Shown here: one piece after another, positions 37,409-53,611 of the stretch | How the letters are laid out: each line of letters begins with the position of its first letter | Position numbering within the stretch: position 1 is the stretch's first letter | Source of the DNA: Pseudomonadota bacterium | Lineage (GTDB): Bacteria > Pseudomonadota > Alphaproteobacteria > UBA11222 | Length of the DNA: 64,000 bases | NCBI GenBank assembly: GCA_036758605.1 | Contig: DAIOWE010000001.1 | Coordinates: 935-64,934 of the forward strand | Direction: 5' to 3' | Position numbers and translations under genes: made by a program | The notes under the pieces: generated by a model | The model's database searches: none | Seen by the model: only the letters and a program-made list of their open reading frames with translations | What the model was told of the DNA's origin: nothing

Positions 37409-38698
37409 TTATTTTGCCGTCAGCGTGGTATTGATCTGATACTTGCCATTTCCGCCACAGCAGTGCTGGACGGAAAGCAGATAGGTACCCGGATTAACCG
37501 GTGTGTTAAGCCCGAAATTATAGCCCGCGCCACCATCGTCATTACTTGCCACCGGGTTGCCGCGACTATCCATCAGACGGGCGGTGACATCGCTGGACCC
37601 GCGCGAATTCACGGCAAGCATTCCCGGTTCAGATACGCGCAGTGAAAACATATCGACATCGTTGGCTGCGCTAATTTGTCCTTCGAGGCTGGCGCGTGTT
37701 GCGCCCGCCTGTAACAGTGTCATTGCGGTTCTGGCAGTTGCACCATAATCATCGGGTTCCGCCCCTGTCGCACCGGCGCGGCCAGCACCCACGGCTATGT
37801 CGAAACTGGCAACCGGCCTTAGCGCATCACCGCTGCGGTATAAATATAGTTTTGCGAAACCTTCCGGCGTGGTTTCAGAAAAAACGGTGCTGGCCTGCAA
37901 ACGTCCGCCTTCCGTTTTGAGTATGTTGATCGTACTGCCGGGTGGCCCCGCCAGAATGGCGTCGGCGCCAGCGCGCGCGATTTCGGGACCGGAAAGCGTA
38001 ATCACAGTGCGCTGATTTCGCAGGACGCGCGCCACGGGGTAGGGGGGCGCAAGCATGCCGGGACTGCTCAGGGCCGCAGCCAGTTGTGGCAGCCATGCGG
38101 CTGCGGATGCCGGCAGGCCGCTATCTGTTCTGGCAATGTCTTGCAGCGCCCCCCCCATGGCGGCGCCAAGCGAGCGGGACAATGTTCCGGCCATGCCTTC
38201 GCGCGCCGCAAACAAACCGTTTTTTGTGCGCTGTAACAACAGTGCTCGGGTTCCCGTCTGGCCGCCCAGTGACCGGTACAGGTTGAACAAACGCCGCGCG
38301 GATTCTGCCAATGCCTGATCCGTGGCGGAAAGTGTGCTTTTATCCGCCGCACTTACCGCGCCATCGGGTGTAATACGCAATAACGGGCCTTCGCCGCTCA
38401 GGGCATCGGGGGCAATGCGATTTGCATCGGCGAATAATTGTGAGAGGTTGGCCAGATATTCCGGGTTGCTATCCGCTTCTATGCTCAATGTGGATTGGGC
38501 GTGGGCGGGGGAGGCGAGGATGATGAAAGCGGTTAGTAAGATAAGAGAAATTTTTACTAACGTAAATTTTTTCGCAGCCCCCCACCCCAACCCCTCCCCA
38601 CGAGGGGGAGGGGCTTTGCCACCGAGTGCGGAGTTTCTTCTCCCCCCCCCTCGTGGGGAGGGCCGGGGTGGGGGGCGCAGTATGAGAAAATTCTTCAT
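37409..38698 (-). CDS. Secreted protein with a C-terminal PPC (pre-peptidase C-terminal) domain. Its N-terminal region contains an in-frame GC-rich palindromic element.
   Basis: The ATG at 38698 overlaps the GNAT stop as ATGA. Hydrophobic signal-like segment LVKISLILLTAFIILASPAHA. C-terminal …NDVDMFSLRVSEPGMLAVNSRGSSDVTARLMDSRGNPVASNDDGGAGYNFGL…PGTYLLSV… fits the PPC pattern. Confidence 0.6.
   Translation of the reverse strand: MKNFLILRPPPRPSPRGGGRRNSALGGKAPPPRGEGLGWGAAKKFTLVKISLILLTAFIILASPAHAQSTLSIEADSNPEYLANLSQLFADANRIAPDALSGEGPLLRITPDGAVSAADKSTLSATDQALAESARRLFNLYRSLGGQTGTRALLLQRTKNGLFAAREGMAGTLSRSLGAAMGGALQDIARTDSGLPASAAAWLPQLAAALSSPGMLAPPYPVARVLRNQRTVITLSGPEIARAGADAILAGPPGSTINILKTEGGRLQASTVFSETTPEGFAKLYLYRSGDALRPVASFDIAVGAGRAGATGAEPDDYGATARTAMTLLQAGATRASLEGQISAANDVDMFSLRVSEPGMLAVNSRGSSDVTARLMDSRGNPVASNDDGGAGYNFGLNTPVNPGTYLLSVQHCCGGNGKYQINTTLTAK
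38576..38675. repeat. 100-bp GC-rich imperfect palindromic element (REP/MITE-like) inside the 5' coding region of the PPC gene.
   Basis: Arm 1 CCCCCCCACCCCAACCCCTCCCCACGAGGGGGAGGGG, a 28-nt spacer, and arm 2 as its near-perfect reverse complement. Each arm itself holds a CCCCTCCCC/GGGGAGGGG hairpin. It reads as Pro/Gly/Arg-rich peptide without stops in the gene frame. Confidence 0.65.
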
Positions 38699-39300
38699 AA
38701 TAACCGTGGCGCTCTCGCCGCCAGATCACTTTCCAGCAGCGCAAACAATAGATGGTCCTGCCACACGCCGTTGATACGCAGATAGCGGCGCGCCAGACCT
38801 TCTTCCTGAAAGCCCGCATGACGTAACACGGCCTTGGACGGTTCATTGTTGGGTACGCAGGCCGCTTCCAGCCGGTGCAGGCCAAGCTGTTCAAACACAA
38901 ATGGCACTATACAGCGCGCCGCCTCGCGCATATAGCCCTGGCCCGAATATGGCTGTCCCATCCAGTATCCCAGCGTACCGGATTGCGTCACACCGCGCCG
39001 GATATTGCTGAGGGTAAGGCCGCCGATCAATGCGGAATCTTCCTGACGAAATATGAACAGGGCATAGCCCGTATCCTCGCGCATTTCCTGTGCATAGCGT
39101 TTCAGGCGGCGGCGGTATGCAGGGCGGCTAAGATCATCTGCGGGCCATATAGGTTCCCATGGAGTCAGGAATGCACGGCTGGTTTCGCGCAATGTGGCCC
39201 ATTCATCAAAATCACTGACAAGGGGGGCGCGCAGAAAAACCCTGCGTCCCTCAATCCGCACCTGTTCACTCATCAACACCGATGGCCGTAATAAGGACAT
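38695..39300 (-). CDS. GNAT family N-acetyltransferase (RimJ/RimL-like).
   Basis: 201 aa; …ALFIFRQEDSALIGGLTLSNIRRGVTQSGTLGYWMGQPYSGQGYMREAARCIV… acetyl-CoA binding motifs. RBS GGGGAGAA. Confidence 0.7.
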   Translation of the reverse strand: MSLLRPSVLMSEQVRIEGRRVFLRAPLVSDFDEWATLRETSRAFLTPWEPIWPADDLSRPAYRRRLKRYAQEMREDTGYALFIFRQEDSALIGGLTLSNIRRGVTQSGTLGYWMGQPYSGQGYMREAARCIVPFVFEQLGLHRLEAACVPNNEPSKAVLRHAGFQEEGLARRYLRINGVWQDHLLFALLESDLAARAPRLL

Positions 39301-53477: not shown

Positions 53478-53508
53478 CAAACGGGCCGCCCGAAAGGCGG
53501 CCCGTTTT
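53478..53508 (+). terminator. Rho-independent terminator after the DUF1329 gene.
   Basis: AAACGGGCCGCC-CGAAA-GGCGGCCCGTTTTGTT. Confidence 0.6.
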
Positions 53509-53542
53509 GTTATACCAACGGCCTGATGAACAGACCCGTTGT

Positions 53543-53611
53543 GTCATTCTGAGCGAAGCGAAGAATCCCCATCCATTTCGGGGAGATCCTTCGCTTCGCT
53601 CAGGATGACAG
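53543..53611. repeat. Palindromic dispersed repeat, copy 1 (69 bp).
   Basis: GTCATTCTGAGCGAAGCGAAGAATCCCCATCCATTTCGGGGAGATCCTTCGCTTCGCTCAGGATGACAG; a second inverted copy lies at 59024-59122. Confidence 0.7.

Follow-up and report, generated by a model that had tools for sequence, protein, structure and literature searches.

The subject of this analysis is a GC-rich palindromic doublet that lies in the 5′ part of a gene for a secreted protein, within a stretch of 64,000 nucleotides of contig DAIOWE010000001.1 from a member of the Alphaproteobacteria (hereafter the window). The coordinates of all features are given in Table 1. The host gene starts within an ATGA overlap with the upstream gene for a GNAT acetyltransferase and adjoins a type II secretion cluster. 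The N-terminal translation of the minus-strand open reading frame (37409–38698) reads MKNFLILRPPPRPSPRGGGRRNSALGGKAPPPRGEGLGWGAAKKFTLVKISLILLTAFIILASPAHA up to the predicted signal peptide cleavage site and continues with QS; this site was placed by the AxA rule and is a prediction from the sequence. The h-region spans positions 38513–38551, the c-region reads SPAHA, and the n-region is basic, with 11 K+R residues against 1 D+E. A twin-arginine signal was considered and rejected, because the motif GRRNSAL is located 25 residues away from the h-region. The doublet begins 21 nt after the start codon of the ATGA overlap.

Two inverted units of 34–36 nt make up the doublet, and each arm forms its own hairpin of 8–9 bp with a 4-nt loop. 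The left unit (38578–38613) reads CCCCCCACCCC AA CCCCTCCCC ACGA GGGGGAGGGG on the plus strand, and on the mRNA strand its blocks follow each other in the order C-block, loop, first G-block, TT loop and mirror G-block. In an inverted-repeat search, the arms were 34 nt long, 29 nt apart and 82% complementary without gaps; the chief mismatch is AA versus CC, which on the mRNA strand reads as G·U wobble. CGCAG pentamers flank the doublet at 38573–38577 and 38676–38680 and add a few pairs to the stem. Unit 1 has a G-quadruplex motif on the mRNA (minus) strand and unit 2 one on the plus strand. The computed fold of the mRNA-sense strand has an energy of −96.2 kcal/mol compared to −59 ± 4 kcal/mol for shuffled sequences (z −8.7), and none of 200 shuffles was as good, which rules out a chance palindrome; the DNA fold of the doublet amounts to −47.3 kcal/mol (z −7.8). 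All six frames of the doublet are free of TAA, TAG and TGA, a property found in only 88 of the 63,898 segments of 102 nt in the 64 kb, and consequently both orientations remain open.

A preliminary description of the window had already given the translation of the open reading frame and had placed the element between the ATGA-coupled start and the hydrophobic segment of an abnormally long n-region. It had also proposed a separate hairpin in each arm, a distance of 28 bp between the arms, a strong mRNA structure and the absence of a second copy in the window. These statements were borne out. The translation is as given there, and the start is conserved in all orthologues read; the n-region comprises about 49 residues compared to about 15 in an orthologue without the element, and the spacer measures 28 nt. 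The 23-mer core occurs at these two sites only (0 expected in the window), and the motifs CCCTCCC and GGGAGGG are absent from the remainder of the 64 kb. The arms had further been called near-perfect reverse complements; their inverted arrangement holds, the near-perfect match does not in view of the 82% complementarity.

Seven independent assemblies of metagenomes or metagenome-assembled genomes (MAGs) yielded the identical DNA, so the doublet is not an assembly artefact. The orientation was the same in these seven assemblies of the window's own strain, and an ongoing phase-variable inversion was therefore rejected. One metagenome contig (L171) stops exactly within the poly-G/C run of the element (about window position 38650), which suggests that such palindromes disrupt short-read assemblies and that copy numbers in MAGs are likely underestimated. 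An Rfam scan at the E-value threshold returned only sub-threshold matches to microRNA precursors, as is usual for long GC hairpins, and nowhere in the window did a family attain its gathering score. In a large protein database no candidate shared enough words with the 40-residue peptide encoded by the element, and neither an intrinsic terminator nor a sigma-70 promoter was found at the element. A second, unrelated palindrome is present at 53542–53610 (TGTCATTCTGAGCGAAGCGAAGAATCCCC / GGAGATCCTTCGCTTCGCTCAGGATGACA), with 29-nt arms that are 90% complementary and 11 nt apart. It is located in a convergent intergenic gap directly after a terminator-like hairpin (GGGCCGCCCGAAAGGCGGCCCGTTTTG, 53483–53509) and resembles another dispersed repeat family.

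Resemblance to the BoxC/PIT/TM repeat class

The architecture of the doublet was compared with that of a bacterial motif that was named in turn BoxC, "potential intrastrand triplex" (PIT) and TMECO (Hoyne and Maher, 2000, 2002; Holder et al., 2015, PMC4666352; Kaplan et al., 2016, PMC5100583) and that belongs to the G/C-rich class II "intrastrand triplex motifs" (TM). E. coli MG1655 has 23 copies, all of them intergenic, and five pairs are inverted, each joining a type A unit with a TTA loop to a type B unit with a CCG loop; 3,610 motifs were counted in 262 proteobacterial genomes (PMC4666352). In that study the motif was not associated with mobile elements, and PIT/TM in E. coli in vivo showed neither promoter or terminator activity nor an effect on polymerase. 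It tied the motif to local sequence instability, with palindromic pairs shedding small parts while a hairpin was still possible (PMC4666352). Kaplan et al. described the E. coli elements HPG1/HPG2 as a switch between G-quadruplex (G4) and hairpin; the motifs flank open reading frames, none lies within one, and they are often paired on opposite strands (PMC5100583).

The units of the window show the three blocks of the TM class, that is a pyrimidine block, a complementary purine block and a mirror purine block with short loops between them. They also show the paired loops: the TT loop of unit 1 resembles E. coli type A and the CC loop of unit 2 type B, and the block order of unit 1 is that of the E. 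coli TMECO units. The E. coli doublet between lldD and trmL (TMECO 17+18), which we read directly, has the sequence CCCTCACCC TAA CCCTCTCCC TCA GGGAGAGGGG, a 59-nt spacer, and CCCTCGCCCC TCC GGGGAGAGGG CCG GGGTGAGGGG. The corresponding reading of the window doublet is CCCCACCCC AA CCCCTCCCC ACGA GGGGGAGGGG, a 28-nt spacer, and CCCCCCCCC TCGT GGGGAGGG CC GGGGTGGGGGG. Block order, strand arrangement and the TT/CC loop pairing are alike, and the spacer compares with 16–59 nt in E. coli. Further similarities to BoxC/PIT/TMECO are the low copy density, the local rearrangements and the deletions that leave a hairpin. Whereas all E. coli copies are intergenic, a trait of the TM family, the copy in the window appears to lie within a reading frame that is kept open, between the conserved start and the core of the signal peptide. 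The strict TMECO consensus (CCCTCNCCC N3-6 GGGNGAGGG N3 GGGNGAGGG) has no match in the window, where the blocks read G4AG4 and G4TG4 versus G3NGAG3 in TMECO and loop 2 has 2 nt versus 3; as the regular expression is unmatched, the element is a variant of the class. Judged by its block architecture, the doublet is thus best classified as an inverted pair of variant BoxC/PIT/TM units and not as TMECO proper. By analogy with the published members, a unit in single-stranded form can presumably adopt three structures, namely hairpin, purine-motif triplex and G-quadruplex; both strands contain a canonical G4 motif, and the energies computed here are those of the hairpin only.

A similar repeat is known from Archaea. 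Repetitive potential G-quadruplex sequences of the Methanomicrobiaceae, all copies of which are intergenic, were described by Chashchina et al. (2021, PMC8044849), and the oligonucleotide GGGGGGTGGGGGCAGGGGAGGGGGCTCGCCCCCTCCCC / CTGGGGGGTGGGGGCAGGGGAGGGGGCTCGCCCCCTCCCCGCA was in an equilibrium of hairpin, antiparallel triplex and G4 in vitro (PMC8044849). This oligonucleotide, with the blocks GGGGGGTGGGGG..GGGGAGGGGG..CCCCCTCCCC, is nearly the same as a unit of the window. Its block order is reversed, the C-tract lying 3′ of the G-blocks instead of 5′ as in the window and in bacteria, and no doublets were described for the Methanomicrobiaceae repeats.

A genome scan with the pattern CCCCRCCCC N2-3 CCCTCCCC N4 GGGGG revealed at least 120 loci, distributed over Variovorax, Ramlibacter, Rhizobium, Microvirga, Bosea, Hyphomicrobium, Rhodopseudomonas, Chloroflexota, Planctomycetota and some Firmicutes MAGs. 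The following figures refer to the matches listed. In nearly all of them the hairpin was complete (…AGGG) beyond the part required by the pattern, and single arms were at most 97% identical to the arm in the window. Among the 132 units, 83 had an inverted partner, in the major E. coli layout in 63 cases and in that of the window in 20, so inverted doublets are the norm, and the partners were frequently of two distinct subtypes. The organism of the window contributed none of these matches. One doublet per 64 kb is compatible with the density in E. coli, about one per 200 kb. Doublets of Comamonadaceae (Variovorax and relatives; L023, L033–L035, L039, L043, L073, L085, L087, L099, L104, L116, L134) regularly pair GGGGGAGGG-NN-GGGGTGGGG with GGGGGAAGG-TT/CT-GGGATGGG, which echoes the type A plus type B rule of E. 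coli, and a few loci have three units in a row.

Orthologues and allele series

We identified 23 homologues of the host protein, all in MAGs of uncultured Alphaproteobacteria or Pseudomonadota and in metagenomes. The synteny is kept, with genes for ThrC, an M16 peptidase and the GNAT protein preceding the host gene and a convergent gspD following it. In every orthologue read, including those without the element, the host gene overlaps with the GNAT stop codon by ATGA or GTGA, indicating that the start codon is ancestral. In L011 and L140 the gene is called further downstream, yet the GTGA start is in frame. Between this GTGA overlap and the called start (L011:2921–3003, and likewise in L140; P0009) there is a small GC palindrome, CACCGCGCCCCCGCGCATGGCGCGAGGGCC, through which the frame is open from GTGA; it may represent either this element in decayed form or an independent palindrome.

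The clade (P0003,(P0002,(P0001,window))) carries the element. Its sister clade contains a short remnant (P0004/L007), the different small GC palindrome (P0009/L011) or none (P0005/L009), and all deeper homologues are devoid of the element. This distribution, together with the family membership, points to an insertion event. Seven alleles differ in the distance from the ATG to the KK motif (Table 1). All seven distances are multiples of three, although at least six independent length changes must have occurred; the chance of frame retention without constraint would be about (1/3)^6, that is about 0.001. This agrees with the earlier proposal that the element is in frame.

In one lineage, represented by L002 and L003, the whole element is inverted, as revealed by the orientation of the spacer. 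The L001 allele shares 100 of 112 positions with the reverse complement of L002, and 77 of 110 in direct comparison. The inversion divides lineages that are about 11% apart in protein sequence, which also argues against an ongoing phase-variable inversion. The peptide encoded by the inverted element has a different sequence, which is still rich in Pro, Gly, Arg and Ser and contains 8 K+R and 0 D+E residues, so that the n-region is basic in both orientations. A nested insertion of 30 nt (GCGAAGC TTTGGTGTA GCTTCG; L001:2095–2130, also in L136, L137 and L174/L175), which comprises whole codons, is partly shared by the inverted L002 allele; it is either older than the inversion or recurrent.

To estimate the constraint on the element, we compared the window with L004. 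At fourfold-degenerate sites the two are 48% identical in the host gene and 64% in the GNAT gene, whereas the element is 84% identical and its 5′ arm matches in 29 of 30 positions. The hairpin energies of all full-length alleles range from −70 to −96 kcal/mol (z −4.8 to −8.7); no significant fold was seen for the L007 remnant (z −0.9). The arms are thus conserved above the neutral rate. They could be maintained by selection on the structure or on a protein-binding site, or by gene conversion with other genomic copies.

Translation start and competing explanations

The explanation that we favor, and consider reasonably probable, is that a doublet of the BoxC/TM class is held in frame within a signal peptide, in its disposable n-region, where it serves as an inert translated spacer. 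The doublet would have been located at the junction between the GNAT gene and the gene for the secreted PPC-like protein already in the ancestor shared by a small clade of uncultured freshwater Alphaproteobacteria. Since the overlapping genes leave no intergenic DNA at this junction, the n-region of the cleaved signal peptide would be the only tolerant place. There the element would be translated as a basic spacer of Pro, Gly, Arg and Ser whose exact sequence is presumably immaterial. It would survive as it has no stop triplet in any frame or orientation, with only whole-codon length variants being retained. The DNA palindrome may promote rearrangements such as inversion of the whole element, the insertion nested within a hairpin loop and deletions between C-blocks, in agreement with the instability reported for the family in E. 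coli. The mRNA hairpin, which starts at about +20, would probably reduce the translation of the downstream gene as compared with the upstream ones.

Several observations weigh against this explanation. The strict TMECO consensus fails, and all published members of the family were reported to be exclusively intergenic (PMC4666352, PMC5100583, PMC8044849). The conservation of the arms above the neutral rate is not explained by an inert passenger. An exact empty site could not be aligned, since the N-termini of the element-free orthologues are unalignable and no footprint is readable. The frame argument is based on only seven alleles, most of which were found via protein calls that already contained the extension; L174 was found via a PGAP call that ignored it, so the result is not purely a discovery artefact. 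The start site of the host gene is a prediction, and three pipelines chose three different starts on identical DNA, one taking the ATGA start, another a TTG within the 3′ arm and the third a TTG in the h-region. Within the 3′ arm or shortly past it, each full-length allele has an in-frame TTG, GTG or ATG, and the GTG of L004 would yield a textbook signal peptide (MRKKLYPALIVLCLTSPAFA followed by Q).

These last observations would fit a different explanation, in which the element is effectively intergenic because the start has moved to a codon in or just after the 3′ arm, such as TTG 38590–38588, and the upstream stretch is untranslated or a coupled leader. It would reconcile the locus with the intergenic location reported for the family; moreover, the start called by JGI gives a 393-residue product instead of 429 residues on identical DNA, and GGGGAGGGG just before the TTG resembles a Shine-Dalgarno site. 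We nevertheless consider a shifted start unlikely. The ATG is in frame in all seven alleles, and every orthologue read has retained the ATGA or GTGA overlap. The GGAGG ends only 2 nt upstream of the TTG, and both are buried in the −96 kcal/mol stem. The candidate internal starts and Shine-Dalgarno-like sequences are not conserved in position among the alleles; the TTG of L002 is not preceded by a Shine-Dalgarno-like sequence, the L007 remnant is followed by no start codon at all, and in the window there is no ATG, GTG or TTG between the element and the hydrophobic core. In view of the conserved frame and the conserved ATGA, translation through the element appears likely, and likelier than initiation downstream of it. 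The start-call conflicts as such (L166 / P0026 / P0028; L174 with P0030 versus L175 with P0034, where products of 421 and 378 residues, the latter by PGAP, were called) include an h-region TTG call that truncates the signal peptide. Stop-free GC palindromes are a systematic hazard for the annotation of start codons.

The conservation of the arms would be accounted for if the doublet were selected as a cis-regulatory structure, either as a hairpin or hairpin/G-quadruplex switch that sets the expression of the upstream operon genes relative to that of the secreted protein, or as a shield of the upstream mRNA against 3′ exonucleases like the intercistronic REPs of E. coli. A strong hairpin is retained in every full-length allele despite the inversion and the 30-nt loop insertion, and it begins at the edge of the footprint of an initiating ribosome. 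As to structure, the preliminary description, which had also mentioned translational attenuation, is supported by the −96.2 kcal/mol hairpin. Selection for regulation nevertheless seems doubtful to us, since PIT/TM had no promoter, terminator or polymerase effect in E. coli in vivo (PMC4666352) and no promoter-like or terminator-like site was found at the element. In addition, two lineages have cut the element down to a single unit (L174) or to the structureless remnant (L007) and kept the gene, the element-free orthologues share the operon layout, and gene conversion with other genomic copies could equally conserve the arms.

The element had been classified earlier as a REP/MITE-type mobile palindrome. 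With two short inverted palindromic units, a spacer and a long hairpin it does look like a REPIN, that is a pair of inverted REPs mobilized by an IS200/IS605-like transposase, the RAYT, whose gene would lie at another place in the genome; inverted doublets are common among the matches listed, presence and absence differ among orthologues, and single units look like decayed doublets here as they do in REPINs. The two REP superfamilies are, however, defined by a GTAG or CGTC tag (PMC3733652), and neither tag occurs at the unit ends, which read CGCAG followed by CCCCCC and GGGGGG followed by CGCAG. No RAYT or other transposase was in evidence in the part of the window's open reading frames that was scanned. 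No link between the motif and mobile elements was seen by Holder et al., and the window contains a single copy in 64 kb. Whereas REPs co-vary with a lineage-specific RAYT, the unit recurs nearly identically across phyla and in Archaea. A target-site duplication of the MITE kind was likewise rejected: CTGCG is present on both sides (mRNA strand) only in the window, and other alleles read CGCAG...CTGCG, so the pentamer belongs to the palindrome rather than forming a direct repeat. Hence the label of a mobile REP or MITE was not upheld, as neither a consistent target-site duplication nor a tag nor a transposase is in evidence, and a REPIN appears quite improbable.

Least probable by far is that the Pro/Gly/Arg segment belongs natively to the protein and has a function in it, for example as an extended signal peptide or a linker, with the palindrome being incidental. 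A Pro/Gly-rich N-terminus is indeed shared by all four of the closest orthologue groups. Its peptide sequence is not conserved, however, being inverted in L002, altered by indels in other alleles and absent from 16 of the 21 aligned homologues; conservation is instead at the level of the DNA palindrome. Unrelated genomes contain the same unit, for the most part outside genes. The preliminary description had proposed a palindromic repeat that landed in the reading frame, to be refuted by a conserved Pro/Gly-rich segment in orthologues, and this part of it stands: close orthologues do carry such a segment, but not as conserved protein sequence, the doublet has the TM architecture, and related units are present in many other genomes.

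Table 1. Positions of the doublet, its host gene and neighbors, the allele series, and units found in frame in other genes (window coordinates unless a locus is named).
Feature	Position	Strand	Remarks
Whole palindromic doublet	38578–38675		two inverted BoxC/TM-type units and spacer
Unit 1	38578–38613	−	mRNA strand: CCCCTCCCCC TCGT GGGGAGGGG TT GGGGTGGGGGG
Spacer	38614–38641		28 nt, plus strand CTTTGCCACCGAGTGCGGAGTTTCTTCT
Unit 2	38642–38675	+	CCCCCCCCC TCGT GGGGAGGG CC GGGGTGGGGGG
Host gene	37409–38698	−	429-aa secreted protein, weak C-terminal PPC-domain match
ATGA overlap	38695–38698	−	ATG of host gene and TGA of upstream GNAT gene
Upstream GNAT (RimJ-like) acetyltransferase gene	38695–39300	−	translationally coupled to host gene
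Predicted signal peptide	38498–38698	−	residues 1–67; n-region residues 1–49, element included
In-frame TTG (rival start)	38588–38590	−	inside unit 1 (3′ arm); start called by JGI, 393-aa product
Window allele			ATG-to-KK 126 nt; reference
L001/L136			ATG-to-KK 150 nt; 30-nt insertion with own small hairpin in loop of 3′ unit
L137			ATG-to-KK 156 nt; further +6
L002/L003			ATG-to-KK 138 nt; whole element inverted
L004–6/L138			ATG-to-KK 117 nt; shorter than window allele; arms kept, spacer diverged
L174/L175			ATG-to-KK 102 nt; 48-nt deletion fusing two C-blocks; one unit left
L007/8			ATG-to-KK 57 nt; remnant
GlnE	L022:208–2112		in-frame unit/doublet
Edd	L100:311–2176		in-frame unit
P-type ATPase	L024:4187–5722	−	unit/doublet just before GDGxNDxP motif
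C39-ABC exporter	L074:2906–5194	−	in-frame unit/doublet
UvrA	L096:1–1848		in-frame doublet
Tex	L070:3093–5975		in-frame unit/doublet
MmeI-like methyltransferase	L066:3–2873		in-frame unit/doublet
E2 acyltransferase linker	L110:6509–7999	−	in-frame unit/doublet

In-frame units in other genes

The loci of the genome scan were screened for intragenic units by the length of the open frame and the GC content at third codon positions (GC3), a criterion that is very noisy in high-GC genomes. Candidates were kept only if Pfam domains were present on both sides, by which two of ten were dropped. At least eight of the at least 120 loci (about 7% of 120 sampled) contain a conserved gene with a unit or doublet in its frame. 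In Edd, the unit corresponds to a clean insertion of 13 residues (PPPLGEGRGGGTA) compared to the solved homologue 2gp4, and in UvrA the doublet adds about 43 residues between two domains that align with those of 2r6f. Our literature search revealed no description of in-frame BoxC/TM units in genes. The nearest precedent are the Rickettsia palindromic elements (RPEs), which are inserted in frame in protein-coding genes and encode a conserved family peptide (PMC10969869).

Like the RPEs, the doublet is a palindromic repeat in the range of about 100–150 bp that is placed in frame in a gene and adds a tolerated peptide. The RPEs appear to be unrelated to it in sequence and composition. The RPE peptide is conserved, whereas that of the window element varies with orientation and indels, and the site in the n-region of a cleaved signal peptide also differs from those of the RPEs. 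The feature in the window belongs, as a variant, to a known repeat class and is unusual in its in-frame position; it is not a new kind of system. As its units are free of stop codons in every frame and orientation, copies of whole-codon length can persist in genes. For the broader idea that BoxC/TM units constitute a coding-compatible repeat found across phyla, similar to the RPEs but outside Rickettsia, we see the arguments as evenly balanced. Such coding-compatible copies would have gone unnoticed because the copies studied in E. coli and Archaea are all intergenic.

BoxC/PIT/TM has been known for about 30 years, and the class was published as strictly intergenic. The host gene, in which a copy has been retained in frame over a long period of evolution, offers a natural allele series with both orientations, a doublet, a single unit and a remnant, by which effects of DNA or RNA structure can be separated from those of the encoded peptide and throttling of translation by the palindrome can be examined. 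In practical terms, gene callers disagree on the starts of genes of this kind. The n-region of a cleaved signal peptide may represent a safe harbour for selfish or structural DNA.

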